A DNA stretch of 64,000 nt, from positions 24,425 through 88,424 of the IMG/VR virus record IMGVR_UViG_3300025919_000136; one strand, given 5' to 3'. Both the position numbers and the translations under genes were made by a program. Shown piece by piece: positions 7,223-62,535 of the stretch. Under the pieces are notes generated by a model. It did no database searches. It was not told the DNA's origin and saw only the letters and a program-made list of their open reading frames with translations. This stretch comes from a virus. The first letter of the stretch is position 1. The number at the start of each line of letters is the position of its first letter.

Positions 7223-7279
7223 TTGATTTGGCCTTCCTCTGGGAGAGATGTCTCCGCGAATAGTAAATACGAACAGTGG

Positions 7280-7483
7280 TCAGTTAACTACAATAATCGT
7301 CTTCTGCAGAACGGGTGTTGGCTTGCCGTTGGCTCCCCTGATGGCGAAGTAGCGGCCTTTGCCGGTGTAGTAAATGGAGAGTTGACCTTCGACTTCGACG
7401 GACTGCTTGCCGAAGAAGGGTACCGTCTTGGCGCGAATGGTGGTCTTTTGGTTGACGAGTTCTTCGAGTTGGTTCGTGGTCAT
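7280..7483 (-). CDS. hypothetical protein
   Basis: Operon context, ATGA overlap. Confidence 0.55.
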   Translation of the reverse strand: MTTNQLEELVNQKTTIRAKTVPFFGKQSVEVEGQLSIYYTGKGRYFAIRGANGKPTPVLQKTIIVVN

Positions 7484-8016
7484 GGGTTGGGCTTAGGCTT
7501 GGTCTGATCAAGTAGCGTAGCTACCTGTCCTAGTCGACGGGAGTTCCGCTCCAAGTCCTCGGTGATCTCGTGGATTGGGCGGAGTCCTATGTAGGTAGTA
7601 AGTGCGTCCTGGGTTTGCTGGGAGTTGATCACCATCCAGTAGTTGGGGCGGGTGATGGCGTCCAGCCCGGATAGTTTCTTCTTGAGTTCCGCGAAGGCTT
7701 CGAAGTAGTCGGTGAGTTCGGCGCGGAGTTGCTGAAGCTTATCGTGCAGAGACTCCTGCTCCGCTAGGAGTAGCGCCCGCTGGAGTATGGTGAGCGATTG
7801 TGGTTCGGTATTATCCGGATTGGTAATCGTGCTCTGCAGCCATTCGTGCATTGCGGAGTCGTAAGCGAGTTGAGCAGTTTCGTCTGCCTGGTAGTACTCC
7901 TGACAGGCTCCGGGCTGGTCCTGGAACTCCAACATGCACGACTGTAGGCGTTGCGCGGCTACGATGCGGCGTTGGTTGAGTTCGAGCAGGTCGTCGGGTA
8001 GTTTGGAGGTAGACAT
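7480..8016 (-). CDS. coiled-coil hypothetical protein
   Basis: Likely start MSTSKLP; helical. Confidence 0.55.
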   Translation of the reverse strand: MSTSKLPDDLLELNQRRIVAAQRLQSCMLEFQDQPGACQEYYQADETAQLAYDSAMHEWLQSTITNPDNTEPQSLTILQRALLLAEQESLHDKLQQLRAELTDYFEAFAELKKKLSGLDAITRPNYWMVINSQQTQDALTTYIGLRPIHEITEDLERNSRRLGQVATLLDQTKPKPNP

Positions 8017-8020
8017 AATG

Positions 8021-8602
8021 TTAGTACTTCTTGCCACCTTCCTTGGCGCGAACGTGTGGCTTATGATCCTCGCGGACGGAGTTGTAGGCCAACTTCTCCG
8101 CCATGATCTCCGGCAACTCCGGAGCATATTCGCCCGCTAGGTCGTAGATGCGAATGAGAGTATCCGCAAGTTCGCAAGCGAACATGGAGCGGTGGGGCAA
8201 CTTGTCGTCGGGTAGACCCTTGCGGTGGCCTTCCATGGCCTCGGCGAGTTCGCTGACGGCAAGCATGAGCAGTTCGCCAATGTTGCGCTGAACGTATTCG
8301 CCAGTATGTGGGTCGTTCCACCAGCCGCAAGCGACGGCGTTGCCGTGGCATTGGGCGACTAGGATTTGGGTGGCACCAGAGATCGCGACTGGATCCAGAG
8401 CGAAGGTTCCAGTAGAGGGATACGGCGCGGCTTCGAAGCGGTCGGTTTGGTAGAGCGGTTGCGGGGTGTTCGGATGATCTGCTGGTGCGGACGGGTCGTT
8501 CAACGGAAGTCGGTGGATTTCTGGTTGGTTGGGCATCTCGGTTCCTTTTAAGTATTGTTCGCCTAAGTACTCTAAATATGGCGAAGGTTCAGTATTGCTC
8601 AT
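8021..8602 (-). CDS. MazG-like nucleotide pyrophosphohydrolase
   Basis: SELAEAMEGHRK...ELADTLIRIYDL...EKLAYN. Confidence 0.85.
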   Translation of the reverse strand: MSNTEPSPYLEYLGEQYLKGTEMPNQPEIHRLPLNDPSAPADHPNTPQPLYQTDRFEAAPYPSTGTFALDPVAISGATQILVAQCHGNAVACGWWNDPHTGEYVQRNIGELLMLAVSELAEAMEGHRKGLPDDKLPHRSMFACELADTLIRIYDLAGEYAPELPEIMAEKLAYNSVREDHKPHVRAKEGGKKY

Positions 8603-8789
8603 CTATTCGCTCCCGACACTGGTCGGTTACTCGGACCCAACGGTAGCCTGCAATACGACCTTGCAACTTGGCCCAACGACCCCGCCTACGTCGGCGGTAC
8701 CACTGGAACATCGATAGTTCCAAGCCTACGGACCAAGCGGTGGCGTATAGCAGAGCTATAGTAAATAGAATGCTGGCGATTGTGTTCAT
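8589..8789 (-). CDS. small membrane protein, paralog of 2032-2241
   Basis: TM helix plus WYRRRRRGRWAK. Confidence 0.65.
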   Translation of the reverse strand: MNTIASILFTIALLYATAWSVGLELSMFQWYRRRRRGRWAKLQGRIAGYRWVRVTDQCRERIDEQY

Positions 8790-9340
8790 TAATAGTATAC
8801 TCCTGGCTGTGGTTCTGGAGTGAGTTCGAAGGTGATCGGGATCTCGGTACTATGGCTATATGGTGCTCCGTAAGCCAGTTTGTATGATGTTTGATCGCTG
8901 TCCAGATGATACGGCGGTAGCAGCGTGTATGTAGGTAATTGGGCTTGGAGCGCCATATTGGTCTCTTCGGTCAGGCCAACAGAATTCTCCCAGCCGTCCA
9001 GTTGCAGTATGAAGAGCGCATTGCAACGGGCAAGCATACGTACATCGAAGGTTCGCCAGTAGTTCCAGCCGCGCCGCTTGCGTTCGGCTTGAACGGAGTC
9101 GGGCGGAGTGGTGGTTTCGATTAGCTTCGCCAGAGGATGGTTATGTACGATAGGGCTGTATACTACGTAGCCCTGCTCCATCAGGTAAGCGGTGGCGTGG
9201 AGGGCCGCTTCGAAGCGTTGCTCCATGATGTGGCCGAAGGGGTGGTTGTATGGGCTGGCAAGGTAGATCACGCCACGGTTGCCGATGTAGCGGAGGGCCT
9301 GAATGGATTGTTCTCGGGAGTACTCCGTAGTAGTATTCAT
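8789..9340 (-). CDS. DUF1937 / nucleoside 2-deoxyribosyltransferase-like protein
   Basis: IYLASPY...VYSPIVHNH...GWENSVG..EE. Confidence 0.8.
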   Translation of the reverse strand: MNTTTEYSREQSIQALRYIGNRGVIYLASPYNHPFGHIMEQRFEAALHATAYLMEQGYVVYSPIVHNHPLAKLIETTTPPDSVQAERKRRGWNYWRTFDVRMLARCNALFILQLDGWENSVGLTEETNMALQAQLPTYTLLPPYHLDSDQTSYKLAYGAPYSHSTEIPITFELTPEPQPGVYY

Positions 9341-10260: not shown

Positions 10261-10743
10261 CTATGTATTGGTGGTGGGGTCGGGCGGCTCCGCGATGGGG
10301 CCGTACCAGAGACCTACCAAGTTAGTGATTGGACGTCCGACTTGATCGTGAAGGACGTTGGGATCTTGACACATTATCCTTACTCCCCAGCCCAAGTTCA
10401 GTAGTATAGGGTTCCGACACTCGTTCATAAATACATATAATCCTGATTCGCAAGGGGAGTACTTAGACCAGTAAGGACCGCTCTGTTTTGGCCCATCTTC
10501 TGGGAGAGATGCTCCGCCTGATTCATTCGCGTGGGGTTGGGCGTTGGCGTCAATGAAGTCCGCGATTTGACGGAGGAACTTTGCCCGTTCGTGACCGAAA
10601 TAATGAGGTCTACCTTCAGGTGACTCATCGTCGTATATGGTAGTAAAGATCAATGTATTTATCACTTGTTCGGTGTCGAGCTCGACGTATTCGTACGGTG
10701 GGTCTTGGTCGGGGCGCGGAATACAAAGTTTGGTTCGGTGCAT
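10261..10743 (-). CDS. hypothetical protein
   Basis: Operon context; contains a motif copy read as GASLPEDGP. Confidence 0.55.
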   Translation of the reverse strand: MHRTKLCIPRPDQDPPYEYVELDTEQVINTLIFTTIYDDESPEGRPHYFGHERAKFLRQIADFIDANAQPHANESGGASLPEDGPKQSGPYWSKYSPCESGLYVFMNECRNPILLNLGWGVRIMCQDPNVLHDQVGRPITNLVGLWYGPIAEPPDPTTNT

Positions 10744-10776
10744 GGTGGGCGGAGACTCCTTCCAGAAGATAGGCCT

Positions 10777-14009: not shown

Positions 14010-14392
14010 GACTCAATCAGCGACTGGAGCACCTTCATATCGCCTTCGAGGAAAGTATAGCCGTTAGCGATCTTGTTCAGAAGGTAGATGGCGGAGATCT
14101 TCCAATTGCGGTTGTTGTCTTCGACTGCAAGTTTCCAGTCGTACTTGAATATGTATCGTTCGGCTTCCAGCGAAGCCAAGGATTTCTCCCGTTCGCATTC
14201 GTCTTCGATACCCAGGATCTGGTGGACGATGTTGCTCGTGATTTGGGCCGCTTCTCTGGGAGAGATCTCCGCTGTGGCAGACTGCTTTACGTGCCTGTCG
14301 GTGGTTTTCTTCTGTCCGCCGTATATGGTGGCGAACGTGCTGATCTGCGCTTGCTTGCGACGGCGCTGCATTTCTTGGGCGGTGATTGGCAT
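14006..14392 (-). CDS. hypothetical protein
   Basis: AAGGAG RBS upstream. Confidence 0.6.
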   Translation of the reverse strand: MPITAQEMQRRRKQAQISTFATIYGGQKKTTDRHVKQSATAEISPREAAQITSNIVHQILGIEDECEREKSLASLEAERYIFKYDWKLAVEDNNRNWKISAIYLLNKIANGYTFLEGDMKVLQSLIES

Positions 14393-14439
14393 GGTTGGTT
14401 GGACTCCTTAGTAGGATTGTGGCTTGGTTACTTGAACGG

Positions 14440-15885: not shown

Positions 15886-16205
15886 GGGTTTATTGGGGTA
15901 TTTTCGGAATTATTTGTAGGTAGGTTTCGTACCCAGAAATCTTTGATGGCCGATTCTTGGTTCTCGTAAGTATATAGCGGAGTGGTATTGAACGGATACG
16001 AGGTTTGGTATAGCCTGGTGGTATAATAGTTGATCACGCGGAGAACGGCGCGGAGTTGTTTCCGGTGACGTTGGCTGCGGCGGTATAGGTGATGTGGGTT
16101 GCGGAGTTTGGGCGCTCTTCTGGGAGAGATGCTCCGCTGTCCATAGATAGCATTCGATTGCCGCGTTGACGTGGGGTGGCCGTATGTGGTGGAGGGGTAC
16201 TTCAT
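15858..16205 (-). CDS. hypothetical basic protein
   Basis: ATGA overlap with the upstream gene. Confidence 0.4.
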   Translation of the reverse strand: MKYPSTTYGHPTSTRQSNAIYGQRSISPRRAPKLRNPHHLYRRSQRHRKQLRAVLRVINYYTTRLYQTSYPFNTTPLYTYENQESAIKDFWVRNLPTNNSENTPINPTQTPQDRA

Positions 16206-17669: not shown

Positions 17670-18088
17670 TGTAGTTTTGGGCCGTCCTCTGGGAGAGATG
17701 TCTCCGCGTCAATATTCGGTGTGGGCGTGGTCTTGGGCGGAGCTAACGCTGCTACGTTTTCTAATGCTTGACGAGCGATGGATTTCAGATAGTTTGGGTC
17801 GTTGGCGTTGTAGATGGCCATAACTCCGTTCAGGCGGTGGGTTGGTGGCAGCTTGCGTATGATGGCGGCAATAGGATCTACGATATCTTGTAGTGCTTGC
17901 GTAGCTAATTCAAGTTGGCGGTTAGCGGTGGTGGCGTTCCATTTGGTTGTAGCTAGTTCGGGTGTGGGTGCGGAGGGGCCGGTTGCGTCGCAGGTGTAGC
18001 AACCGGTCTGGACGTTGCCGTTGGATAAGGAGGCGTAGGATGGGTCTGTGTCGGTAGAGCCGCAGAAGGGGCAGGGGTTGGGTTTCAT
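17666..18088 (-). CDS. Lar-like (restriction alleviation) Zn-finger protein
   Basis: KPNPCPFCG...CYTCDATGP...KWN. Confidence 0.75.
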   Translation of the reverse strand: MKPNPCPFCGSTDTDPSYASLSNGNVQTGCYTCDATGPSAPTPELATTKWNATTANRQLELATQALQDIVDPIAAIIRKLPPTHRLNGVMAIYNANDPNYLKSIARQALENVAALAPPKTTPTPNIDAETSLPEDGPKLQ

Positions 18089-20770: not shown

Positions 20771-21287
20771 TTAAAACGGCGTTTCGACCCCACGTACAGC
20801 CTTCGTTTCTGGGCGAATTTCGTAGATTTCCATCGGTGGCTTCGTGGGTCTACAACGCCGTTTAAATGCTTATTACCCGATTTAGCCATAAATCGACTAA
20901 ATCGGTCAACCCGTCTAAAAACGGCTGGGGGCGCGAAGACGGATGGCGCTCATGAAAACGCGTTATTTGTCGTATTTTCCGGTTTTGGTCGTATTTTGTG
21001 TTTTCGTATTTTTAGGCTTTGAAAATCTTGTTTTTTCGTAATTATTTACTAAACTTGACCATATCTTCAGATATGATATTTATAAAATATAATATGACAA
21101 AAAGCAGACAGCGCATGACGAACGATACCACCAATTAAGGAGTCGACGCTGGACTCCCTGTTGCCGCTAACTTAAGACGGATCAAGCAGAAGCCGGGCTG
21201 GCTCTTTTGGCTCAAACGATTTTGTAGAAAACAGACGCGCCATCCGTCTTCACCCCCCCAGCCGTTTTTAAGCGGTTTTACCGATTT
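20771..21287. other. non-coding origin-like region with inverted repeats and an AT-rich core
   Basis: IR 20771-20801/20838-20866; ~50-bp IR 20899-20949/21237-21287 enclosing an AT-rich stretch at about 21000-21105. Confidence 0.6.
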
Positions 21288-22555: not shown

Positions 22556-22803
22556 CCTTTTCCGAAAGTATTTTCGAAAATACTTTCGGGCCGCTACCTG
22601 CCTGGGGCCTGTAGAAGGTGTCGCTGCTGAAAACGTTGCCTGTAGTGGGCCTAGAACGCGATAGATTCGTGCGACCGAAGGCTGTTACCGAAACGGGCCT
22701 AAGTCGCCGGGAAGCGGCCTCTAAACCAATTTATAGCCTCACCACGCTTGAGGCATGGTGGGGCTAGGCGCGACACGCGGAGCATTCTGCCCAGAGGATG
22801 GGC

Positions 22804-24072: not shown

Positions 24073-24157
24073 GTAAATCTGAAAATATTTTCAGGAATAT
24101 TTTCTGGGGCTGTTCGCTGGGTATGGTTAGCGGAGGTATCTCTCCCAGAAGATGGGC

Positions 24158-26783: not shown

Positions 26784-26823
26784 GGTGTAGTGTGGATCCT
26801 CTCCAGAAGACGGGGCCTGAAAA

Positions 26824-44814: not shown

Positions 44815-44855
44815 CTATTCGCTGTATACCGATAGCGGAGCACTCTCTCCAGAGG

Positions 44856-52097: not shown

Positions 52098-54113
52098 ATG
52101 GGATTCCTCTCACGCGCACTCACCAAGCTAGGCCAAGAAGTCAAGGCTAACGTCAAAGTACCATTTTCCATCTACGGCTCTCTAGGCCAAGGCGACGCGG
52201 GGATGGGCTATACCTCTTCGCGGGATATTGGCTACCTCTTCACCACGAACCCAGGAGCGCAGTACGACTATCTGACGGCGGCTGGTAATCTGGCCGAGAA
52301 CTCCGTGGTGGCTGCAGCTAGCGAAGCCATTGCCCGCGCATTGCCGGACGCACCCCCAATCCTGGAAGTCAAGAACAAGAAAGGCAAGTGGGAATCCGCT
52401 GGGGATCACGAAGTACTGGACTTCCTTGGTTGGCCTAACGGTGCTCCGGATAAGGACGTTCGCGGTTACTCCGCAGCGCACCTATGGGCGGCAACCATTC
52501 GCTCGGAGTATACGAACGGTAATGGATTCTGGAGACTCGTGGTGGCTCGCGATGGCACCCCATTAGAAGCGTGGTGGGAGCCGTTCATGTCGCCTCGGTA
52601 CAACAAGACGGAGTTCATCCAAGACTACGTAATCTACGTGGATGGCAAACCATACTATCTCCCTGTTGAACAAGTCGTCCACTTCCGGCTGGCACTGAAC
52701 CCGTACAACTCGCGTTGGGGCTACACCCCACTCTATACGGCTGTACGCCATGTAGACGGCGATAACCGGGCCGCGACGTTCCATACTGCCCTACTGCGGA
52801 ATGGAGCTGTAGGAAGCTACTCGGTGTCCTTAAATGATTCGGCTGACTACGCCAAGGCAGGCATCACGCCCAAGCAGTTCGACGCTACCTTAGCTAAGTG
52901 GGAGAAGCGGCTACGTGGCGAGGGTGCGGGGCGGATGATCTCGTCTTCTCTGCCAGTGAAGATCGATAAGCTGGACTACTCCCCCAACGATCTGATGCTG
53001 GATAAGTTGGTGGCCTACTACGAGTCACGCATCTGTGCAGTGTTGGGCATCCCGGCGATGGTGATTGGCATCTCTTCTGGAGACAGTACCAAGACCTATT
53101 CCAACTACGAAGAGGCACTGAAGGACTTCTGGCAGCGGACGATCAAGCCGCTCAACGGGCTGCACGCCTCGGAGTTGGGAGCACAGTTGCTACCGCTGTT
53201 CGGTCTGTCCCCGTCCGAGTATCGTATTAACTGGGACTACAGCAACGTATCCGCGTTGCAGGAATCCGTGGATGCGGTGCACACGCGGGCGCGAGCGAAC
53301 TGGCAAGCAGATGGTATTACGCTGAACGAATTCCGAGGTCATATTGGCGAAGAGACGAAGCCGGAATTTGAAGATGTCTGGTACACTAACCAAGGTCCGA
53401 AGGAAATAAGCAGCTTCGACCCGAACGATCCTTCTAATCAACCACCTGAAGCCACCCCAACCCCACTCCCAAGCGGAGCATCCTCTCCAGAAGATGGGCC
53501 AACAACGCAAACCGACGAAGAGCAGTTGGCTGCGTTAGATAAGGGCGCGACGAAGTCGGAAGACGAACCACGCGACGATCATGGCAGGTGGACGTCGGAA
53601 GAAGTTACCCCTCCAAAAGCTGATACCAACCAGCCAACTTCCCGCTCCGAACTCTCCAAGCTGAACCATAAGGTCTCCACGAGGGAGAAGCAACAGTACG
53701 CGGAGCAGCAGGAAGTAGACCTTGCGCAGCACTTGGGCGGCTATTCCCTGGAAGACAACGAACCGCCCGACATCATTGTGCCGAACAAGTCCGGCAAGGG
53801 TCACCAGCCAATAGAGCTCAAAACGATGCTGGACAACGACCGCGACCGCATTACAATTCACGCTGATTCGCTGGAAAGGAAGCAAAAGTACGCCGCCGAC
53901 AATAAAACGACGTTCCATACGGTGGTACTCGACCATCGCGATCGATTCGCTGGCGGGGTGAATGCCCACCAGCACTCCGGCCACGAGATCTACTATCGGA
54001 GGGGGCTGGGTAGCTACAAACTCTCCGCAATGTACAAGGTGAAGGATCACGCTGAATTGAATCGACTGATACACATGTCGAATAGCAAACTTCCGTTAGG
54101 AGCGCGACCATGA
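52098..54113 (+). CDS. HK97-type portal protein with C-terminal PD-(D/E)XK-like domain
   Basis: GNGFW, VVHFR, GYTPL, ICAVLGIP, TYSNYEE, ITLNEFR; tail EPPDIIV...IELKT. Confidence 0.9.
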   Translation: MGFLSRALTKLGQEVKANVKVPFSIYGSLGQGDAGMGYTSSRDIGYLFTTNPGAQYDYLTAAGNLAENSVVAAASEAIARALPDAPPILEVKNKKGKWESAGDHEVLDFLGWPNGAPDKDVRGYSAAHLWAATIRSEYTNGNGFWRLVVARDGTPLEAWWEPFMSPRYNKTEFIQDYVIYVDGKPYYLPVEQVVHFRLALNPYNSRWGYTPLYTAVRHVDGDNRAATFHTALLRNGAVGSYSVSLNDSADYAKAGITPKQFDATLAKWEKRLRGEGAGRMISSSLPVKIDKLDYSPNDLMLDKLVAYYESRICAVLGIPAMVIGISSGDSTKTYSNYEEALKDFWQRTIKPLNGLHASELGAQLLPLFGLSPSEYRINWDYSNVSALQESVDAVHTRARANWQADGITLNEFRGHIGEETKPEFEDVWYTNQGPKEISSFDPNDPSNQPPEATPTPLPSGASSPEDGPTTQTDEEQLAALDKGATKSEDEPRDDHGRWTSEEVTPPKADTNQPTSRSELSKLNHKVSTREKQQYAEQQEVDLAQHLGGYSLEDNEPPDIIVPNKSGKGHQPIELKTMLDNDRDRITIHADSLERKQKYAADNKTTFHTVVLDHRDRFAGGVNAHQHSGHEIYYRRGLGSYKLSAMYKVKDHAELNRLIHMSNSKLPLGARP

Positions 54114-56761
54114 CTTACGAAGCATATCTCAACGGCGAGTATGCCGGTCCCGCTGCTACGGTGAAGGGTTGGGGGAACTTTGGTAGGTGGACAAGATGCC
54201 TTCCAGAAGACCAGTACCCCACACTTAGTGAACTAGAGAAAAGTGGTCGGACCTCGAACGGCCACCTTCTGGCAGGAGAGCTCCGCCAGGGCATGCAGCA
54301 ATTCCCGCCCCGCGAAGCAGTGCGGAGTACTGCGGAGGGATTGCTGGCCTATGTGGGCGACGCGAGCGAAGGCGCGGTGTTGGAGATCTCGGACGGGACG
54401 GCGGATGATGTGGATGAAGATGAGGAGCCTGAGACTAAATCAACGGACGACGAACCAAGAGATGAATACGGACGATGGACCTCTGGTTCTAATTCATATG
54501 CTCACGAATGGAAAGGCGGTAAGCCTTGGGAAGATGATACATTTGAAGATAACGCTAAACAGCTTGGACTAGAAGTTCATGATGAATCGATAGGTAAAAC
54601 CAGCCGCAGTTATGTGGTACTGAATAATCCTGTGACGGTCTATCACGTAACTAGAGGCGCCAACGTAGATGCTATACTTAAAAATGGATTGCAGCCAACA
54701 GACAATGGAGGCAGGCAGGTGAATGGCGTTTATTTAGGTGGTAAGGATATAGCTTCATATCTTGGAGACGAAGGCCACCTATTGAAGGTTCGCCTGCCAG
54801 TAGGAACTAAATTGTACCAAGATGTGCAGCCAAATGCTGTTTTAGTGCGCCACCCTATCCCAAGCAAAGACGTAGAGCTAGTGGATACAAATAAGCATAC
54901 TGAGACTAAGTCCTTCAACGGCTACTCCTACGCCTCCACGCAGGTTAATCTCCCCGAACCACTCGCAAGCCAAATCACCGATTGGGCCGCAGCCAATATC
55001 CCTGTCGATTCGCTGCACGACGAATCCCAGGGGCAAGACGTGCCCCACATCACGGTAAAGTACGGAATATTAGATGACTCGCCAGCGAGTTCGGAAGCGG
55101 CACTCCGGTTTACGGGTCCAATCCAAGCTACGCTGCGGAACATGAAGGTATTCCGGTTTTCACCTTCGTACGACGTGCTGGTGATCGCCGTAGACAGCCC
55201 CGACCTGCACAATGCGAACAGTACCATAAAAGCAGTGGTGCCGACGGTGGATACATTCCCAACATACGATCCCCACGTGACGGTGGCTTACGTCAAGAAA
55301 GGTGAAGGGGAAGCGTTCGACGGGAATGGGGAGTTTTCTGGGCAGAACTTGCAGTTTGGTAGCGTAATCTTCAGTAGTAAGGACGGCGAAGAGTATGAGA
55401 TCCCGCTGAACGGCTACGATTTCTATTCACCGTACAACAACTACGATGAAGAAGTGACCTATCCCGAACTAGAAGCGAAGTCCTGGGAAGACGAGCCCCG
55501 CGATGAGTCCGGTAAGTGGACCACTGGCGATGCAGATACCGACCGCAAGCTAGCGGCCCTCCGCTGGGAGGGGCGCAAGCTACGCGAGACACTGAAGACT
55601 CACGAAGCGAAGCTGAAGGATGCCCGCGAACGCGGCGACGAAGCCGCCATCAAGGAGCACGACGCCAATCATCGCCGCACCGCTATCGAGTTGCGTAAGC
55701 TACGCGAACAGCATCATCAGTTGGCGGGCAAGAAGGAGTATAAGAATCCGTACGAGAAACGCGGAGGAACTTCTCCAGAGAAGGGGCCAAAACCGGAACC
55801 AGAGCTGGTGAAGGATACGAGGCCAGAAGCACAGAAAGTGCGGGAGCAACTGCTCGCAGATAGCAAGTCTATAGACGAACAGTGGCAGAAGCATTATGAT
55901 AGGTACAATGAAACCGACAGCAAGATTGTCGACATAAATAGCAAAATTCGTGATATTCATCTAGATAATGATGAACATAATCGATACGACGCGAATCAGC
56001 TAGAGGATGTCATGGAGCCTCTTCGCAAGGAACGGTCGAAACTATACGAAGACATGGCCGATGCCCAGCGGGCTATGACCCAACTGGATAAGGACCGAAT
56101 TGTCAAGTTGAGGCAAAATTTGTACCAAGACACATCTAAGATAAGCCGTAAGTTTAGAGTTGTTTATAGTGATACAGGAGGCGAGAAAATCCCTCCTTCT
56201 ACTCGACGAGCAGTGGAAGGTGGTATGGAAGAATTCCACAAGCTAGCCGCATCGGCAATATACAATTCTGCAGCTATAACGTTCAAGAGGGAAACCAAGA
56301 CTAGATCCAACGCAAATGGGCACCAAATTAGTCTAGATAAGAACTCTGGCCAGGATATAGTAGTTCACGAGTTAGGCCACGTACTAGAAAACAATAACCC
56401 GGATATCCATAAGGCTGCTGTAGCTTTCCTGGCCAAACGGACCAAAGGCGAATCACTTAAGCCGCTGAGTTTTCTCACTGGGCAAAAGGGTTACGGGAGT
56501 ATTGAAAAAGCACGCAAAGATAAGTTCATCAATCCCTACATGGGCAAGGACTATTCTCCAAGTCAGAAATGGGAACAAGGACGGTGGAAGGATGTGGACA
56601 ATAACGCAGTATACTCAGACCCGTCCAAGAACCCAGCCACCGAAATCATCTCTATGGGCCTAGAATATATGCACTCCCAGCCGCATGTTCTGGCAGAGAA
56701 GGACCCGGAGTACTTTGACTTCATGTATAACGTATTAAGAGGCAATTACGATGCAGTTTGA
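54110..56761 (+). CDS. polyvalent head-associated protein: ART-like, 2H phosphoesterase (Acb1-like), coiled coil, zincin
   Basis: YHVT...ILKNGL...GVYL; PHITVKYG and PHVTVAY; VHELGH...EIISMGLE. Confidence 0.8.
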   Translation: MTYEAYLNGEYAGPAATVKGWGNFGRWTRCLPEDQYPTLSELEKSGRTSNGHLLAGELRQGMQQFPPREAVRSTAEGLLAYVGDASEGAVLEISDGTADDVDEDEEPETKSTDDEPRDEYGRWTSGSNSYAHEWKGGKPWEDDTFEDNAKQLGLEVHDESIGKTSRSYVVLNNPVTVYHVTRGANVDAILKNGLQPTDNGGRQVNGVYLGGKDIASYLGDEGHLLKVRLPVGTKLYQDVQPNAVLVRHPIPSKDVELVDTNKHTETKSFNGYSYASTQVNLPEPLASQITDWAAANIPVDSLHDESQGQDVPHITVKYGILDDSPASSEAALRFTGPIQATLRNMKVFRFSPSYDVLVIAVDSPDLHNANSTIKAVVPTVDTFPTYDPHVTVAYVKKGEGEAFDGNGEFSGQNLQFGSVIFSSKDGEEYEIPLNGYDFYSPYNNYDEEVTYPELEAKSWEDEPRDESGKWTTGDADTDRKLAALRWEGRKLRETLKTHEAKLKDARERGDEAAIKEHDANHRRTAIELRKLREQHHQLAGKKEYKNPYEKRGGTSPEKGPKPEPELVKDTRPEAQKVREQLLADSKSIDEQWQKHYDRYNETDSKIVDINSKIRDIHLDNDEHNRYDANQLEDVMEPLRKERSKLYEDMADAQRAMTQLDKDRIVKLRQNLYQDTSKISRKFRVVYSDTGGEKIPPSTRRAVEGGMEEFHKLAASAIYNSAAITFKRETKTRSNANGHQISLDKNSGQDIVVHELGHVLENNNPDIHKAAVAFLAKRTKGESLKPLSFLTGQKGYGSIEKARKDKFINPYMGKDYSPSQKWEQGRWKDVDNNAVYSDPSKNPATEIISMGLEYMHSQPHVLAEKDPEYFDFMYNVLRGNYDAV

Positions 56762-56802: not shown

Positions 56803-57222
56803 ATGTCAGTTAAAGTACGCTTAGCCTCCGGCGAAGTGGCGATCGTAGACGGCTACGAATGGGTGGCGGCGGACCCGCAATTGCGAACGCTACTCAACAC
56901 CTTCAAGCAACCTTACGGCCCCTCCGCAAGCGATCCCGACCCAGACTATTCGCTGGCGGAAACCGTTATTGGGATGCTTGGTGGCGAGATCGTCTCGGCA
57001 GACCCACCGCTAGACCCGCCCCAATATGGCGACCCCAACCCCACACCAAGTACTGTTAGCGGAGCACCTCTCCCAGAAGATGGGGCCACAAAATCCACCA
57101 GCCCTGACAGAGACGTACCCGACTTCACGGATCCCAACGTCCAGAAAAGTACCGCATCCGAATCCTATGCGCAAGCGTCTGCACCATTTAAAGAGCTCCT
57201 CGCGGCGGACGTGGTGGACTAG
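56803..57222 (+). CDS. small acidic protein
   Basis: GAGG RBS before MSVKVRL. Confidence 0.6.
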   Translation: MSVKVRLASGEVAIVDGYEWVAADPQLRTLLNTFKQPYGPSASDPDPDYSLAETVIGMLGGEIVSADPPLDPPQYGDPNPTPSTVSGAPLPEDGATKSTSPDRDVPDFTDPNVQKSTASESYAQASAPFKELLAADVVD

Positions 57223-57860: not shown

Positions 57861-60749
57861 ATGACTGCTACCGCTACCATATACGAACCCACGGACTTAG
57901 CTCTGAAGGCATACGGCTTCGGCGGATCCGGCAGTTACACAGAAACCAAAGCTGACGACGACACTGGTTGGAGGACAATAGACGGTCGCCACGTCTATTT
58001 TGGGGATGACGGAGAGCAGCATACAGGAAAGGACGCGGTAGAAGCTTCAAAGAAAGACTCAGAAAAATCATCTGATGAAGCAGATAGTAAGTCCCAGCAC
58101 GCCCACGAGTCTACAGCGAACTCCAATGCATCGTCAGACACTAAAATAAACTCGTACTCAGCTAACTCCAACTCGAGCAAAGCCAAAGAAAATAACTCAG
58201 CTGATGCTTCTGACTCTAAGTTAAAAGAGGCGCAGGCACATCACGAAAAGGCTGCTAGAGCCCACGCTAGAGCAGCCAAACACCTAGAGAGTAATCCGTC
58301 AGGCACCCAACCAAACACAGGCGGCACCAAAGAGGACGAGAGTAAGAAAGATACCAATGCCAAACTACACCGAGACGCTCAGAGAGCTCATGAGAGTGCA
58401 GCAGATAAGCTATCGGAGCATTTACATCATTCAAGTAGAGATAGTCTAGAAGAAGCGAAGAAGGACGCTGCCAGTTCTACGGAAAAAGCTGACACAGCTA
58501 CGAAGAATGCTAGGAAATTTGATAAAGAGAAATCTACTGCCAACAACTCCGCTGGTCGAGAGTCTCACAAAGCTAAGTCTGAATCGGACGGTATAGGATT
58601 CCATACTACCGAAGGTGATATTCAACACGCACATCACAATATCGCGGCCCATCACACATCGGCGGCGGAGGCTCATCGGGAGCAGGCTTCTCGAGCTCGA
58701 AACGGGAACGACCAGGCAGCTCACCACGCAGCAGCCAAAGCGCACTTGGAAGCTGCAGCGAAGCACAAGGCGTTGTCCTTGCGTGGACCATACGAGAAGA
58801 AGTCCGAGGCCGACGATATAATGTCTGCAAAAGCTGCACGGAGTGAATTTATGAAAACTGCCGCCGACGTCCTGATTAGCTACGGCTCCGAACTGAAAGC
58901 CACTGGCACCGACGAAAACGGAGACTTCCACTTCGGCGGCTACTTGGTGCTGTTCGACAGCCATGATGTCTCGCGTCAGCGGGACAAGTATCTGAAGTCT
59001 ACGGACTACGACTTCGAGGATGGGGACAAGACCACCATCTACTTCCACCATGGCTTGGACGAGACGCTGAAGGCCACCAAGCTGGGCACTGGCAAGCTGT
59101 ATATGAAGGACGCTGGCGTGTGGATGGACGGCATCATCAAGGCCCGCACGGACTACCTCGCGAAGCATGTGGACAAGATCAAAGACGGTATTAAGGACGG
59201 ATATTTTGGCCTATCCAGCGGCGTCCCCGCCCACCTGGTGGAGCGCAAGGCCGTCCCCGCTGGCCACGAAGTGCTCACTTGGCCCCTAGGCAAGGATGCT
59301 TCCATTACGCACATCCCCGCCGAGCCCAAGACGATGTGCTTTTCGTTGAAGTCGTTGATGGAGGAAGAGAGCGGAGAAGCTCTCCCAGAAGATGGCCCAT
59401 TTTCTGGAGCGGATACTCCGCTTGAAGCGAAGTACTCCGACGACGAAGAACGCGACGAACATGGCCGCTGGACGGCTGGTGGAGCTAAGGATGCTCTATC
59501 TGCTAGTGAAGCTGCAGACTCCGCCAGCCAGGATACTGGGGTTGATAGCTCTCCGGACGACGAAGTTGGAGGAGGGACCTACTTCGCTAAGGACTTTGCT
59601 CTATCCGCCACAGAGGGTGGCAAGGAAGCTGCCAACAACCACGGCACCGCAGCTAACCTGCATCAGATCATGGTTGACTACCACAATGACCAAGCAAAAC
59701 AGTCGTCTGATGTTGATGAAAAACTGGCCCATCAGAAGGCTGCAACCCTCCACACCACTGCAGCCGCAATGCACCGTGGTCTGGCGAAGGCGGCTAGTGG
59801 GAGTTCGAGTCCATCTTCTGGAGAGAGTGGCTCCGCGACTAGTAATTCGCAAAGCGCTATATCCGGAGCAGCTATGGACGAATCTCAAGCTGCTTGGAAG
59901 GCTACCAATAAGGCTGAAGGTCCTGGACCCAAAAGTCACTCAAGAATGCATCGGGTTGGCGAAACTTCAGCTATTGCCCGCAGAGCTACCCAAACGGAGG
60001 ATCCGAGACAGGCCATTGCGCTACATAACCAAGCAGCTAAGGACCACGAAACTCACGCTGCTATTCATAGCAATCGCGCCAACTATCCGGATGATCCGAC
60101 TGCAGGAAGCAACCGCACAATGGAACAAGCTTCTCGCGATCATCTGGCTGCTTCAGATGCTCACGAAAAAGCAGCTAAGGCCCATCGCAACGCCGCTAGA
60201 ATGTTGAAGAAGTATTTACCAGAGAAGAAGGATGATGGTTCGTACGACGATGTAAGTTCAATTATCACTCCTGACGTTATACAGGTTCTGGCGGATGGTC
60301 GGCATGTAGGCCTCCGCTTCCAGGACCACCCAAAAGTGGTGCTTGCAGCCATGAAGGGATTCGTACATCGCTTGTTCGATTGGCACGTGGATCGAACGGC
60401 GAGTCGTAAAAGTGGACAGGTATACTCCGGGGATAACTGGGATATGCACGACACCATTTGCAACGGAATGGCGCAGATGGTGCAGCAGTACCGTAATCAC
60501 CTGGATGACAACTGCCCGCCTGGGCGTAAACCGTGCAAGGTCCCTGTAGTGCAACTAGGTACAGCGGCTCCGCTGTCGTGGTCGGATTCTGGTGGAGCGC
60601 TAGGTACCGATCAGTTCAAGGCAACCGACAGCGCCGACGCGCTGGAACGGATGGAAGCTGAGTTGCTCGAACGTCAAGCGGCCTTCGCCCGCCTTCGGGC
60701 TGATGGGTTGCTGATCCAAGAGCGAATGGTTGCAGCTGCAGTAGACTAG
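57861..60749 (+). CDS. prohead maturation protease with large His/Ala-rich extensions
   Basis: Core about 58890-59350: FGGYLVLF, YFHHG, GVWMDG, GLSSG, ASITHIPAEP. Confidence 0.82.
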   Translation: MTATATIYEPTDLALKAYGFGGSGSYTETKADDDTGWRTIDGRHVYFGDDGEQHTGKDAVEASKKDSEKSSDEADSKSQHAHESTANSNASSDTKINSYSANSNSSKAKENNSADASDSKLKEAQAHHEKAARAHARAAKHLESNPSGTQPNTGGTKEDESKKDTNAKLHRDAQRAHESAADKLSEHLHHSSRDSLEEAKKDAASSTEKADTATKNARKFDKEKSTANNSAGRESHKAKSESDGIGFHTTEGDIQHAHHNIAAHHTSAAEAHREQASRARNGNDQAAHHAAAKAHLEAAAKHKALSLRGPYEKKSEADDIMSAKAARSEFMKTAADVLISYGSELKATGTDENGDFHFGGYLVLFDSHDVSRQRDKYLKSTDYDFEDGDKTTIYFHHGLDETLKATKLGTGKLYMKDAGVWMDGIIKARTDYLAKHVDKIKDGIKDGYFGLSSGVPAHLVERKAVPAGHEVLTWPLGKDASITHIPAEPKTMCFSLKSLMEEESGEALPEDGPFSGADTPLEAKYSDDEERDEHGRWTAGGAKDALSASEAADSASQDTGVDSSPDDEVGGGTYFAKDFALSATEGGKEAANNHGTAANLHQIMVDYHNDQAKQSSDVDEKLAHQKAATLHTTAAAMHRGLAKAASGSSSPSSGESGSATSNSQSAISGAAMDESQAAWKATNKAEGPGPKSHSRMHRVGETSAIARRATQTEDPRQAIALHNQAAKDHETHAAIHSNRANYPDDPTAGSNRTMEQASRDHLAASDAHEKAAKAHRNAARMLKKYLPEKKDDGSYDDVSSIITPDVIQVLADGRHVGLRFQDHPKVVLAAMKGFVHRLFDWHVDRTASRKSGQVYSGDNWDMHDTICNGMAQMVQQYRNHLDDNCPPGRKPCKVPVVQLGTAAPLSWSDSGGALGTDQFKATDSADALERMEAELLERQAAFARLRADGLLIQERMVAAAVD

Positions 60750-60775: not shown

Positions 60776-60805
60776 AGTAGCATAGTAAAGAGGAATGCAA
60801 GCACA

Positions 60806-62158
60806 ATGCCAACTTTAAAAGAGAAGAACGACGCCCTCGCGAAGCTGCGAGCGGATCATCAGAAGCGGTTCGAGGCGTTCGACGCCGAAACCGACAGCGG
60901 ACGCAAGTCCGCCATCTTGCAGGAAATCAACCGGGCTGAAGTGGACATCAAGTCCCTCAGCGACGAGGTCGCGCAGGAAGTCCAAGTCGTCGAGATGAAG
61001 CGGCGCAACGAGGCCGAGATGAAGGGCCTCCGGCTCCCGGCTGGCGTCGGGGTGCCCTTCCCGGAGCGTGGCGGCAAGGACGGCGAGCTCCACGGCGAGC
61101 GCATGAGCGCCATCAAGTCTGTCGGTCAGTCGCTGATCGACGACAAGTCGGACATCATGCATAAGTTCCGCGAGTACAACGAGAAGTACGACGTGGTCTA
61201 CGAGTACCCCTTCCGCTCCGTGGGCGAATGGAAGGCTGCGATCCAAGCGGAAATGAAGACGACCCTGACCGAGTCGGGCTTCACCGCGTACGACCGGTTG
61301 CCCAACATCATCACCCTTGGTGCTCAGGTGCCGATGGTTCGCGACCTGATCCCTCAGGGCCAGACAACCGCGATCACCATCCGCTACCCACGTGAAGTGT
61401 CGTACACCAACGGCGCGACGAACGTGGCCGAAGGTGGCCAGAAGCCAGAAGCGGTGTTCAACCTGGCGGAAGTCGACGCTCCGGTGCGCAAGATCGCCGT
61501 CGTAGCTCGCGTCACCGACGAGATGTTCGCTGACTTCCCGGCTGTCCGCGACTACATCAACATGCGGCTTCCCTTTATGGTGGAGCAGCAAGAAGATAAC
61601 CAGATCCTGAACGGAAATGGTAGCTCGCCGAACCTGCAGGGTATTCTGGGCACGACTGGCGTGCTGTCCGGCGGCGCGTTGAACCAGTCCGCCAGCCCCG
61701 CCGACGACCCGATCGTGAACGTGATCCTCCGTGCGATCACGCGCATCCAGGCTGAGTCCTTCTTCCAGCCTACGGGTATCGTCATCAACCCGTTCGACTG
61801 GGAGAACGTCCGCCTGATGCGTTCGGGTACTGGCGACGCTGCCGGTGGTGCGAACCGTGGGCTATACCTGTTCGGTAACCCGGACGGTATGGGTATCGAC
61901 TCCATCTGGGGTCTGCCCGTCGTGAAGACCGTATACTGCCCTCGCGGTAAGGTACTGGTCGGCGCGTTCAGCCTCGGCGCTCAGATCTTCCGTCGCGAAG
62001 GCATCACCATGCAGATGTCGAACTCCGATGGCAACGACTTCTCTTACAACCGTGTCGCGTTGCGGGTGGAAGAGCGTCTCGCTCTGGCCGTGTATCGTCC
62101 AAGCGCCTTCGGTGTCTGCACCCTGCATAGCTACGGTGAGGCCTCGAGCTCCGCGTAA
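60806..62158 (+). CDS. major capsid protein (HK97 fold)
   Basis: Coiled-coil delta domain, VAEGGQKPE, ILNGNG, IWGLPVV, RVEERLALAVYRPSAF. Confidence 0.95.
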   Translation: MPTLKEKNDALAKLRADHQKRFEAFDAETDSGRKSAILQEINRAEVDIKSLSDEVAQEVQVVEMKRRNEAEMKGLRLPAGVGVPFPERGGKDGELHGERMSAIKSVGQSLIDDKSDIMHKFREYNEKYDVVYEYPFRSVGEWKAAIQAEMKTTLTESGFTAYDRLPNIITLGAQVPMVRDLIPQGQTTAITIRYPREVSYTNGATNVAEGGQKPEAVFNLAEVDAPVRKIAVVARVTDEMFADFPAVRDYINMRLPFMVEQQEDNQILNGNGSSPNLQGILGTTGVLSGGALNQSASPADDPIVNVILRAITRIQAESFFQPTGIVINPFDWENVRLMRSGTGDAAGGANRGLYLFGNPDGMGIDSIWGLPVVKTVYCPRGKVLVGAFSLGAQIFRREGITMQMSNSDGNDFSYNRVALRVEERLALAVYRPSAFGVCTLHSYGEASSSA

Positions 62159-62198
62159 GAACCCAATCCCGGCCCTCCCACCGGTACTACTTTCTAGC

Positions 62199-62238
62199 CC
62201 TAGCCCACTCCTCGATTCTCGGCGGGGAGTGGGCTAGG
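62199..62238 (+). terminator. hairpin/terminator after the capsid gene
   Basis: CCTAGCCCACTCCTCG...CGGGGAGTGGGCTAGG; weak U-tract. Confidence 0.55.
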
Positions 62239-62258
62239 TTCGTAGTTAAAGGACAACA

Positions 62259-62498
62259 ATGAATAACTCCGTTAGAGCCAAATTCAAGTGTAACGAAATC
62301 ATTAAGCGAATAGGGTGGGCTAATAGCAGTGAGTTCCTATATTCTGCCCGATTTAGCATCGTAGCTGACGGATCGGAAGAGAACAAGAAGTTCTTCGCCG
62401 CCACCCCAGGAGGTAGTTTAGAGCTCACTACTCTCCGCGACGACTTCTTTCAGGTTGGTAAAGAATACTACATAGATGTAACCTTGGCTGAATCATAG
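62259..62498 (+). CDS. conserved small phage protein
   Basis: VRAKFKC...EENKKFFAATPGG...GKEYYID. Confidence 0.7.
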   Translation: MNNSVRAKFKCNEIIKRIGWANSSEFLYSARFSIVADGSEENKKFFAATPGGSLELTTLRDDFFQVGKEYYIDVTLAES

Positions 62499-62535
62499 TT
62501 GCGGAGTATCTCTCCCAGAAGATGGCCCTATATTC

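Follow-up and report, generated by a model that had tools for sequence, protein, structure and literature searches.

A polar 28-bp motif dispersed over an uncultivated soil phage genome reverses its orientation at a promoter-bearing non-coding hub

What is the role of a ~28-bp DNA motif that recurs about every 2 kb in a phage genome, between as well as inside its genes, and whose orientation is reversed at a non-coding region? This question is raised by a 64,000-base stretch of viral DNA (the window), which comprises the last 64,000 bases of the 88,424-base IMG/VR record IMGVR_UViG_3300025919_000136 (G000; the window is G000:C1:24425-88424, so that window position + 24,424 = record position). 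The source is an uncultivated soil phage, represented by DNA contigs only. The original prediction made for this window had reported about 30 copies of a motif with the pattern GCGGAG-N6-9-CCAGA-N4-5-GGCC. This strict pattern has 19 exact matches in the window, as compared with a mean of 0.01 and a largest value of 1 in 100 dinucleotide-preserving shuffles, and 25 matches in the whole record, where a control pattern read backwards gives 0. When an nhmmer profile built from these 25 strict matches was used, with a threshold of >= 11 bits for accepting a copy, 43 copies were found in G000 and 0 in the reversed sequence; 31 of the 43 lie in the window, in agreement with the number reported earlier. 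Shuffles in which the proteins and the codon usage were both kept (n = 40) contain a mean of 1.1 and a maximum of 3 copies, and at >= 18 bits there are 34 real copies versus 0.075 in these shuffles. Based upon the shuffles and the reversed controls, chance or a coding artefact is ruled out as the origin of the motif. The spacing of the sites in G000 (~38 sites) has a mean of 2.3 kb, a median of 1.9 kb and a range of 0.26-8.3 kb, and its regularity is weakly above random (coefficient of variation, CV, 0.78 vs 0.96, P = 0.08; in the relative described below, CV 0.73, P = 0.03). The earlier description of this spacing as Okazaki-like is weak because the regularity is marginal. The report that no clear copy is present in a cassette at 41.1-44.8 kb and in the inteins agrees with our results, as no profile match, even at E up to 10, is seen in window 40971-44834 (the cassette) or in window 44862-49078 (the N-terminal part of TerL with its HNH/intein-like inserts).

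A relative of this phage, G001 (85,035 bases; locus L127 onward), contains 42 profile copies and was used for comparison throughout. It is collinear with G000 and circularly permuted, with 69-91% nucleotide identity over 67% of G000, and ~6 kb that are present in G001 and absent from G000 lie between the two ends of the latter. As judged from these additional ~6 kb of G001, the full map is ~94 kb; an identical capsid protein is also recorded on another contig, of 94,285 bases. Because most of the sites in G000 and G001 are shared by descent, these two genomes do not constitute two independent tests and they effectively represent one lineage.

The orientation of the motif copies depends upon which side of ~21 kb they are located. 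To the left of this point in the window 6 of the 7 copies are on the minus strand, and to the right 20 of the 24 are on the plus strand (Fisher P = 0.0017), which is close to the bias claimed originally (6 of 8 minus and 19 of 22 plus). The switch occurs between the copies at window 20614-20640 (-) and 21373-21400 (+), and it is found at the homologous place in G001 (62031-/62776+). In assessing how this polarity is related to the genes, it should be noted that the genes were called by our own simple codon-usage caller (not a validated gene finder), which gave 110 genes for G000, with 86.2% of the DNA coding and 13.8% intergenic; the strand assignments are backed by family matches, two strong minus-strand intrinsic terminators, a minus-strand tRNA-Leu and a minus-strand twister ribozyme. 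Of the single (i.e. unpaired) copies, 19 of 35 in G000 and 19 of 34 in G001 point the same way as the local gene. The clearest situation is seen in a group of 28 small minus-strand genes at record 45.9-60.3 kb, almost all without known family, which we call the early operon. In this region all nine copies in G000, and likewise all nine in G001, are on the plus strand, whereas the minus strand carries every called gene as well as the tRNA, the ribozyme and the two terminators. Since all copies in the early operon are antisense, the orientation of the motif is not explained by the local genes. When the singles are fitted with two domains of opposite orientation, 29 of 35 agree with the model in the case of G000 (permutation P = 0.017) and 29 of 34 in that of G001 (P = 0.042). 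However, only the change point near 21 kb is common to both genomes, the other change point being at different places in each of them. The earlier proposal that polarity follows an origin-like region rather than transcription is thus upheld in so far as the orientation depends upon the side of the ~21-kb non-coding region on which a copy lies, rather than upon the direction of the local genes; the region itself is only a putative origin.

The non-coding region in question, which is referred to here as the hub, extends over window 20509-21454 (~0.9 kb); no gene is called within it and it is partly conserved in G001. It holds an A+T-rich core (21055..21100) with overlapping divergent sigma-70-like promoters, viz. 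a minus-strand promoter TTGTCA-16-TATCAT (21100-21073), which was identified by a promoter prediction tool, and a plus-strand promoter TTGACC-16-TATTTA (21055-21082), which is our own reading of the sequence. The -10 hexamers of the two overlap, and in G001 the hexamers and the spacings of both are kept while the spacers have changed. The other plus-strand match given by the tool (TTCAGA-16-TATAAT) is not kept in G001 or in the other contigs compared. On each side of the hub, a promoter matching the consensus is followed ~270-430 nt further on by a motif copy in sense orientation: the leftward promoter by the last minus copy (20640-20614; 19.9 bits) and the rightward promoter by the first plus copy (21373-21400; 30.0 bits, with 27 of 28 positions identical in G001 and TTCGCTA 10 nt upstream). 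Directly beside the latter copy, a canonical minus-strand intrinsic terminator (21437-21407), which consists of a 13-bp stem followed by TCTTTTGG, closes the early operon. The core is flanked by an inverted repeat, whose 51-nt arms in G000 (20899..20949 and 21237..21287) are 88% complementary and 287 nt apart, and whose arms in G001 are 33 nt long and 285 nt apart around the same A+T-rich core. As each phage maintains an inverted repeat with different letters, selection on the DNA structure is indicated. The G001 arms (L131:2312-2344 and 2630-2662) include CCCCAGAAGTTGGGAC, which nearly reproduces the 3' half of the motif and is absent from the G000 arms.

The original prediction regarded the place of the flip as origin-like, but neither skew nor DnaA boxes mark the hub as an origin, and its A+T-rich core and inverted repeat are no more than suggestive of one. 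The skew between G and C at third codon positions (GC3 skew) keeps its sign across the hub and follows the coding strand, and GC skew was therefore rejected as a marker for an origin. DnaA-box-like words are absent from the hub and are not enriched in the window (8 vs 10 expected), and the second change point of the orientation is ill-defined. Outward transcription from the conserved divergent promoters explains the same polarity. In window 12000-20000 (G000 36-44 kb) the two strands differ to an extreme degree in composition: the plus-strand GC skew is +0.19 to +0.34 and the coding-strand GC3 skew is -0.30 to -0.52; the skew in this segment rises steadily toward the hub and drops abruptly there, which is explained neither by transcription nor by replication leaving the hub.

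The motif itself is built around an invariant CCAGA, its most conserved part; the conserved core reaches 14 bases upstream and 13 bases downstream of this word. The core consists of GCGGAG, 0-2 free bases, A-YCTCTCC-CAGA-RGA, 0-1 free base and GGCC, the distance between GCGGAG and GGCC being 16-18 nt, and it is followed by a weakly conserved A-rich tail. Such gaps of 0-2 and 0-1 variable bases between the blocks are more easily tolerated by recognition on a single strand than by a rigid duplex site. No fold is conserved: RNAalifold predicts 0 base pairs for 61 copies with their flanks, and complementarity to downstream or neighbouring DNA is limited to 16 paired copies plus one more. It follows that the motif is not a hairpin but a linear sequence, which is asymmetric. 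A structured RNA was likewise rejected, as duplex energies are notable only for the paired copies and no copy has an Rfam match; the sole match to Rfam 15 in the window is a twister-P5 ribozyme located away from the motif copies. On these features and on the comparisons described below, the motif is a lineage-specific asymmetric cis-element of ~28 bp, or of 36 bp when the A-rich tail is included.

Two further elements are associated with the motif. Four convergent pairs of copies overlap at GGCC and form palindromes of ~50 bp, all of which are kept in both phages (G000 8652/8673, 11765/11792, 17744/17769 and 83795/83818, the last of these being window 59371/59394). The pair at 11765/11792 is located precisely at the junction between the late operon, which runs rightward, and the replication operon, which runs leftward, and that at 83795/83818 lies inside a late gene encoding a 962-aa protein. 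Further, a TTCGNT-like element occurs at most 34 nt upstream of 18 of the 48 intergenic copies (both phages pooled), with a modal gap of 10-11 nt, whereas such an element is seen in 5.2% of intergenic 34-mers taken at random and downstream of only 1 of the 48 copies. Because this element is also present at copies that are antisense to the local genes, it points to a composite regulatory cassette. The hexamer TTCGCT, however, occurs 120 times in G000 and in only 6 cases does a motif copy follow within the next 40 nt. It was rejected as a canonical promoter element, as its position relative to -10-like words is inconsistent, and we regard it as a second element that accompanies the motif rather than as a promoter that has been proven.

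With regard to the genes, the intergenic 13.8% of the G000 record holds 24 of its 43 copies, a 4-fold enrichment (P = 1e-10), and in G001 the intergenic copies number 24 of 42. Several copies are followed after 6-40 nt by a start codon, and no Shine-Dalgarno sequence is present in this interval (overall, 49 of 109 genes have one). The other 19 copies in G000 (44%) are within genes, many of them far from the gene start. The original prediction had stated that the copies in genes are spread over different frames, but this is incorrect, as one frame is preferred for each orientation: among sense copies 15 of 19 read (S/G)-G-A-S-L-P-E-D-G-P, and among antisense copies 12 of 17 read G-P-S-S-G-x-x-A-P. 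Its conclusion that selection acts on the DNA rather than on the peptide is nevertheless valid in view of the 24 of 43 copies found in the 13.8% intergenic fraction. In our view, the flexible and hydrophilic peptides encoded by the in-gene copies suggest a DNA or RNA signal that is accommodated where the proteins tolerate it.

The comparison with G001 also indicates that the motif is maintained. The alignment with G001 runs through the motif at 32 G000 copies, and opposite 31 of these the latter genome also has a copy; when two motif-only matches to copies elsewhere are left out, 29 of the 30 copies with flanking alignment are kept. The identity between the two genomes is 88.5% inside the motif versus 81.2% in the flanks, several copies are kept even though one or both of their flanks no longer align, and the one lost copy has decayed by point changes, not by excision. 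The motif is under selection and is conserved at the DNA level in the relative, where its 42 copies are mostly at the same places. The breakpoints of homology between the two genomes are found within 25 nt of a copy in 10 of 72 cases, as compared with 3.9 expected under a class-matched null (P = 0.005), although a conserved island can in itself stop the extension of a BLAST alignment, so that this excess is no more than suggestive. In contigs of related strains from two other rhizosphere runs, the 3' ends of the copies at window 21397 and 24155 are joined to window 22527 with the same 24 letters in between; at 80% likeness these joints are a lead only.

Beyond this pair of genomes, the motif was looked for in several datasets. 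Among the matches listed, a loose pattern gave only single chance matches in IMG/VR, and a tighter pattern gave multiple copies in a metagenome collection only on the contig of G001 itself. No copy is present in 43 loci (482 kb) around distant capsid relatives, 12 kb of the sequence gave no megablast match to named phages, and in the literature nothing relevant was found by searches for the motif words or for polar, replication-oriented phage motifs. The nearest named capsid relative (55% identity) is present in a metagenome-assembled genome (MAG) of Abditibacteriaceae (G002). A host repeat was rejected as an explanation, as the motif is at background level, similar to that of a reversed control, in 201 sampled genomes from the phylum of this relative, and it has 0 matches in the MAG itself. 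The G002 contig with the capsid gene (C8) shares only three head genes with G000 and has repeats of its own (L177-L181), viz. GGCCCTCACCCC...CCCCTCTCCCA-loop-TGGGAGAGGGG hairpins at ~10 sites, and a ~45-nt motif GCGGAGCCGGA..GTCGGTTGCAGCGCCTGGTTGAGCCGCTG at ~20 sites with apparent compensatory changes in its inner stem. Of the relatives in the DNA polymerase PolA, two (G203 and G206) have nothing similar to the motif. Another and distant one, G204 (loci L390-L393), is a complete 64.5-kb phage with 127-bp terminal repeats and a PolA that is 38% identical, and all but one of its 76 called genes are on one strand. It contains the word TC[TC]CCAG 83 times, versus 23 for the reversed word, and CTTCTCTCCAG 15 times versus 0.22 expected. 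This word and the window motif have the common core TCTC(C)CAG(A/G), but the G204 word is a short near-palindrome (CTCTCCAGAGAG) that has neither the GCGGAG nor the GGCC block. Its 83 copies are divided about evenly between the strands (39 plus, 44 minus), so that polarity is absent, and 75 of them are in genes. The possible kinship of the two should thus be regarded as a lead only.

Any explanation of the motif should account jointly for three facts: its strand specificity without structure, its polarity diverging from a promoter-bearing hub whatever the direction of the local genes, and the conserved copies within genes. The reading that we tentatively prefer, holding it to be possible rather than probable, is that the motif is a strand-specific transcription-control site of the stoperator or nut/ops-like kind, acting on post-early transcripts that leave the hub. 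In this reading a putative sequence-specific factor, probably encoded by the phage, would read the motif as a linear sequence on one strand. The motif would then be in sense on all units running outward from the bidirectional promoters of the hub (21.06-21.10 kb), i.e. on the leftward middle genes (nucleotide metabolism and replication) and on the rightward unit, and also on the late operon, whereas the leftward early mRNAs would carry only its complement. If the factor is made early, it may be loaded or reloaded onto RNA polymerase or nascent RNA about every 2 kb, as in boxA, nut or ops systems, by recognition of the nascent RNA or the non-template strand, and the post-early transcripts would thereby gain a processivity or protection that early and host transcripts lack. 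Alternatively, the factor may be bound to duplex DNA and serve as a one-way protein roadblock that stops polymerase from one side, as stoperators do. When the G000 proteins were searched with PHROGs (all 110) and Pfam (106 of them), no integrase, partition protein, N or Q, transposase, RAYT-like or Tus- or RTP-like protein was found; because no lysogeny genes were found, loading is favoured over a roadblock. This transcription-coupled reading is supported by the succession of promoter and sense copy on both flanks of the hub, by the convergent pair where the late and replication operons converge, by the TTCGNT-like upstream element, by the strand specificity of a motif that has no conserved fold, and by a density like that of stoperators. 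Further, a plus-strand terminator-like hairpin that closes the early region on its right (36281-36302; G+C-rich, 7 pairs and a T-rich tail, a weak match to the consensus only) would make sense if plus-strand transcription crosses the early region. A two-unit model, in which the units diverge from the hub and meet at G000 11.8 kb, fits 29 of 36 singles by hand tally (the script counts 35 singles). We infer the rightward transcription across the early region, the binding of a protein to the motif and the effect of this binding. The list of roles given in the original prediction (priming, Chi/KOPS-like, genome-organising or stoperator-like sites) covers too much to be judged as one proposal; of these, a stoperator- or nut-like site fits the observations about as well as, or slightly better than, priming or Chi-like sites.

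A number of observations weigh against this interpretation. The motif sequence occurs only in DNA contigs, so that plus-strand transcription of the early region would have to be assumed, and the late operon has what appears to be its own divergent promoter region (window 35.9-36.45 kb), as a result of which the rightward transcript from the hub may be short. A replication-oriented model fits the singles about equally (30 of 36 vs 29 of 36), and the early region does not call for a further assumption under it. In each genome six or seven singles are in the wrong orientation, and several of these are kept in G001. The convergent pairs present between co-directional genes and inside the 962-aa late gene are awkward for any roadblock model. 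The 19 of 43 copies in genes, many far from any gene start, differ from stoperators, which are described as intergenic, and the RNA hairpins on which known nut and put sites rely are not conserved here. Lastly, no sigma factor, RNA polymerase, HTH repressor or NusG/RfaH-like protein is seen among the 110 called G000 proteins in the same searches, and PHROGs, Pfam and a protein atlas did not provide a candidate for a motif-binding protein, the atlas search being uninformative for the two genes that flank the hub. A novel binder is possible, as most early proteins are without family.

The likeness to known transcription-coupled systems is likewise partial. For the stoperators of Cluster A mycobacteriophages, which are bound by L5 gp71-type repressors, it is described that reversing the site abolishes the effect and that the repressor is a monomer with two DNA-binding domains (PMC9283540). 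According to the same source, these are asymmetric sites, at promoters as well as internal, that number >20 per genome at ~1 per 2 kb, to which the motif is similar in its asymmetry, in its mixture of promoter-proximal and internal copies and in its frequency of ~1 per 2.2 kb, and a two-domain monomer could tolerate variable block spacing of the kind seen here (PMC9283540). However, the motif is 28-36 bp long rather than 13 bp, 44% of its copies are in genes, it forms convergent overlapping pairs, its orientation does not track local transcription (19 of 35 singles) and is uniformly antisense in the early operon, and no repressor, integrase or partition gene was found in the phage. Since the co-orientation with local transcription fails and no repressor was found, the motif should not be classed as a stoperator. 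The nut (boxA/boxB), HK022 put and RfaH ops sites are strand-specific, are placed in sense just downstream of promoters, and are read on the nascent RNA or the non-template strand, by which elongation is changed. In lambda, each of the two arms of a divergent promoter region has its nut site; boxA is linear, and RfaH-controlled genes are often without Shine-Dalgarno sequences. The motif is similar to these in its sense placement after the putative hub promoters, and several genes right after a copy are also without a Shine-Dalgarno sequence. It differs from them in that nut, put and ops use 1-2 sites per operon as against ~40 per genome here, the boxB, put and ops hairpins have no counterpart in it, and no N, Q or NusG-family gene was detected in the phage.

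Of the other explanations, the most serious, though in our estimate a doubtful one, is that the motif is a replication-oriented polar site. The hub would then be a promoter-type origin, with an A+T-rich core and priming by a transcript as in T7 or T4, and the motif would be located on the lagging-strand template of both outward forks, the strand that has the sequence of the leading strand, where it could serve on single-stranded or passing DNA as a site for priming or helicase reloading, or as a Chi/KOPS-like signal for a phage nuclease or translocase; a phage-private length of 28 nt would allow the phage enzyme to distinguish its own DNA and the direction of its replication from those of the host. 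The primary origin of T7 is located between the early and middle operons and beside promoters, as the hub is. The orientation flips at the hub regardless of the genes, with all nine early copies of each phage pointing outward and the genes inward, and a replichore model with its origin at G000 45.4 kb accounts for the 30 of 36 singles (hand tally) mentioned above. The run of plus copies ends (G001 19670+, then G000 700- and 1033-) within ~2.5 kb of the point opposite the hub on a ~94-kb circle. However, the second change point is ill-defined, in that the minus domain of G001 covers only 45.6-62.0 kb and the left 'replichore' fits 9 of 15 copies, and an independent mark of an origin is missing, as the GC3 skew is constant in sign across the hub and DnaA boxes are absent. 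The fairly uniform density over coding and non-coding DNA, the slight regularity of the spacing, the conservation of in-gene copies without relation to gene starts, and the inverted repeat kept with different letters (51 nt and 33 nt) around the A+T-rich core are in accordance with a replication signal, and the phage encodes a TOPRIM primase, PolA, an SNF2 helicase, AAA_24/DUF669 proteins and a PD-(D/E)XK nuclease. Left unexplained by it are the TTCGNT element upstream of 18 of 48 intergenic copies and the pair at the convergent operon junction. Chi and KOPS/SRS signals are dispersed over coding and non-coding DNA with a strand preference that flips at a single point, and the motif resembles them in having one flip and a similar fraction of 'correct' orientation (~83%). 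These host signals are 5-8 nt in length and are read by host enzymes, and primase sites are trinucleotides, whereas the motif is a lineage-specific sequence of 28 nt with no independent origin signal and an unclear second flip; to our knowledge, no 28-nt replication-polar site has been described in a phage. Tus-Ter and RTP-Ter sites are asymmetric protein sites of ~23-30 bp, whose effect depends upon the direction of approach and whose inverted pairs act as traps. A fork barrier of this type is unlikely here, because the four convergent pairs (G000 8.66, 11.78, 17.75 and 83.8 kb) would trap forks and leave ~28 kb unreplicated; moreover, there are ~40 sites as against ~10, and the four pairs are far from the point opposite the hub.

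The remaining explanations appear to us improbable to different degrees. A temporal discrimination at the RNA level, in which a factor protects or activates the RNAs bearing the motif, or in which post-early and early RNAs pair over ~28 nt and are cut by a dsRNA-specific RNase so that the early genes are shut off, is improbable and has no precedent known to us. It would make use of the fact that the early-region copies are antisense in 18 of 18 cases in the two phages, with at least 7 of the 9 in G000 in spacers between cistrons, that the unstructured motif is free to pair and its copies are similar enough to cross-pair, that the four convergent pairs would fold into ~24-bp hairpins, and that a twister ribozyme in the early operon indicates the use of RNA processing there. 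However, the sequence is known from DNA contigs alone, the indels and the 10-30% divergence between copies would weaken such duplexes, and late mRNAs would be cleaved as well on account of the sense copies within late genes. An equally low probability is given to a strand-specific DNA transaction other than the passage of forks, i.e. a site for a nicking enzyme, for which the localised single-strand interruptions of T5 or phiKMV-like phages provide a parallel, or a linker for recombination in module exchange. Although the excess of breakpoints near copies (10 of 72 vs 3.9 expected, P = 0.005) is consistent with this, it can arise from a conserved island that stops BLAST extension, and the joints at the 3' ends of two copies in related-strain contigs, which show 80% likeness in metagenome contigs where repeats mislead, may only reveal a further plus copy near 22.5 kb in those strains. 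The absence of the motif from apparently recent insertions and the presence of HNH-type nucleases are also compatible with it, but the bipolar orientation is left unexplained. In T4-type PeSL cassettes, which are linked to module shuffling, and in the Start-Associated Sequences (SAS) of Cluster K mycobacteriophages, which are located a few bases before start codons, short regulatory sequences are repeated at gene boundaries. These are co-oriented with genes and exclusively intergenic, whereas the motif is bipolar and many of its copies are intragenic. It is very improbable that the motif is a promoter, or a promoter core, for a phage-directed form of RNA polymerase that fires about every 2 kb, including in antisense in the early region. 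T7-type promoter sets resemble the motif in number, length and conservation, several copies end 6-40 nt before start codons, and the 16-18 nt between GCGGAG and GGCC are in the range of two-block promoters. In this case, however, the most conserved part (CCAGA) would be the spacer, many copies are deep in genes, those in the early region are antisense, and the convergent pairs would fire into each other; further, no phage RNA polymerase or sigma factor is found among the 110 proteins, and in the ~6 kb that only G001 has, for which lengths only were considered, the longest open reading frame (ORF) is of 422 aa. The least probable of these explanations is a selfish miniature repeat (REP/MITE-like) that has spread by insertion, with its orientation biased by single-strand transposition at forks. 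Such repeats are dispersed, short, enriched between genes and sometimes found in inverted pairs, and the tolerated frames of in-gene copies and the link to homology breakpoints would be in keeping with them. However, the positions are stable (29 of the 30 copies with flanking alignment are kept in G001), the lost copy decayed by point changes and was not excised, the motif is more conserved than its flanks (88.5% vs 81.2%), a single copy is not a palindrome, the searches gave no gene for a transposase or RAYT-like protein, and the motif is not above background in the 201 sampled genomes. Explanations that we have not thought of are also given a small probability, which is above that of each of the last four.

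Dispersed polar sites inform moving machines of direction, as they do for RNA polymerase at stoperators, nut and ops, for RecBCD at Chi, for FtsK at KOPS and for replication forks at Ter. We regard the motif as a new form within this known class of polar cis-elements, and the chance that it is something new altogether is a real one. It is present in a phage of ~94 kb with ~40 conserved 28-bp sites, even within portal, terminase and other structural genes, and this arrangement separates the direction relative to one hub from the direction of the local genes. If the site is coupled to transcription, it would represent a new and unusually dense system for elongation control or transcript marking in a seemingly lytic phage, with a built-in antisense logic for the early genes; if it is instead coupled to replication, it would be the first phage-private replication-polar sequence. 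As most early proteins are without known family, the motif also provides a handle for fishing its binding protein out of the ORFans.

The individual copies in the window, other than the two that flank the hub, are as follows. To the left of the hub, the copy at 7230..7257 (-; 21.4 bits) is intergenic, 8 nt before a start codon, with a TTCGTA element upstream and an orthologue in G001. The best match to the profile, at 10490..10517 (-; 31.2 bits), is in sense inside a weakly supported ORF and is identical to G001 at 27 of 28 positions, with flanks at 63%. The intergenic copy at 10749..10775 (+; 22.8 bits), which has GGTTCGGT upstream, runs against the local majority and is kept in G001. These are followed by a sense copy within a gene (14246..14272, -; 21.5 bits), an intergenic copy with a degenerate 3' GGCC block and an orthologue in G001 (16115..16137, -; 23.3 bits), and a copy at the 3' end of a gene, 11 nt before the next start codon (17680..17707, -; 21.5 bits). 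In the early operon, the plus-strand copies include one abutting the stop codon of a minus-strand gene (22777..22804; 23.9 bits), an intergenic one with TTCGCT 11 nt upstream (24130..24158; 27.3 bits), one that is 4 nt past the stop of a gene (28121..28147; 18.7 bits), one within a gene with DUF6011 (31834..31861; 25.1 bits) and another intergenic one (34258..34284; 22.7 bits), all of these being antisense. A weak or partial copy in a 40-nt spacer of this operon (26795..26814, +; 12.5 bits) corresponds to a full copy in G001 (24.8 bits), and two further weak plus-strand copies, also antisense, are found within a gene (29863..29884; 12.1 bits) and abutting the start of one (33693..33714; 13.0 bits). 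The second intrinsic terminator of the minus strand is located inside the early region (33446..33473).

To the right of the early region, the plus-strand copies start with a sense copy in a plus-strand gene (36996..37021; 25.7 bits), an intergenic copy 38 nt before a start codon with GGTTCGAT upstream (39052..39079; 26.4 bits), an intergenic copy just before the 41.1-44.8 kb cassette (40948..40970; 20.1 bits), and a copy directly upstream of the TerL reading frame with TTCGCT 11 nt upstream (44835..44861; 22.3 bits). Within TerL there is a weak sense copy (49079..49102, +; 15.0 bits), which is identical to G001 at 24 of 24 positions. The gene for a protein with an ADP-ribosyltransferase domain harbours both a sense copy (50111..50137, +; 22.5 bits) and a weak antisense copy (50578..50596, -; 12.1 bits). 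In the portal gene (residue ~458 of 671), a sense copy (53473..53500, +; 27.5 bits) is identical to G001 at 28 of 28 positions, with flanks at 81%. Other late genes contain an antisense copy, an exception that is kept in G001 (54260..54286, -; 16.6 bits), a copy at whose first base the homology between G000 and G001 stops (55761..55788, +; 19.0 bits), and a sense copy (57059..57084, +; 26.5 bits). In the gene for the 962-aa protein are present the plus and minus members of the convergent pair (59371..59397, 24.7 bits; 59394..59421, 24.2 bits), which share GGCC, and an antisense copy (59811..59836, -; 18.2 bits). The last copy in the window is intergenic and precedes a start codon by 9 nt (62501..62527, +; 29.2 bits).

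The gene map of the record, as derived from our own gene calls and family matches, begins with late or tail genes on the plus strand (record 1-11.7 kb). At 12.0-45.0 kb, on the minus strand, are the genes for the TOPRIM primase, PolA, a ThyX-like protein, an HD dNTPase, AAA_24, DUF669, the PD-(D/E)XK nuclease, the SNF2 helicase and others. The early operon is followed on the plus strand (60.9-88.4 kb) by TerL with its HNH/intein-like inserts, the portal and the major capsid protein. A dense set of nucleotide-metabolism genes is found at G000 18.1-23.2 kb (L009/L010) and at window 5617-9340. It includes the ThyX-like protein (404 aa), a YfbR/HD dNTPase (PHROG name 'dATP triphosphohydrolase'), a MazG-like pyrophosphatase, two nucleoside 2-deoxyribosyltransferase-like proteins, a UDG-superfamily protein, a short-chain dehydrogenase and DUF6378, and its composition suggests a non-canonical or modified base in the phage DNA.

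Two large proteins of the head module carry enzyme domains: that encoded at window 49922-51559 (+) has an ADP-ribosyltransferase exoenzyme-like C-terminus (Pfam PF03496, E = 1.5e-7), and that at 54110-56761 (+) a 2H / 2'-5' RNA-ligase-like, Acb1-like domain (E = 2.8e-7 and 1.2e-4). From these domain matches, both may be ejected counter-defence proteins. The cassette at window 41191-44814 (+) consists of two genes, for proteins of 683 aa (with a weak beta-helix match) and 519 aa. It is motif-free, has 61% G+C in the 2-kb bin 42001-44000 and has no counterpart in the available part of G001; its acquisition was probably recent. A 212-aa protein encoded shortly before the late genes (window 39734-40372, +) has a receiver domain of the response-regulator type (Pfam PF00072, E = 2e-10), but an output domain was not recognised in it. 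The tRNA-Leu (anticodon TAA) at window 36170-36245 (-) is at the head of the early operon and is preceded on the minus strand by TTCGCT-N7-TAATAT. The twister-P5 self-cleaving ribozyme at window 27509-27563 (-) is located between small genes of this operon and in the same sense as the operon, with a score of 50.6 bits as compared with a gathering score of 37.6.

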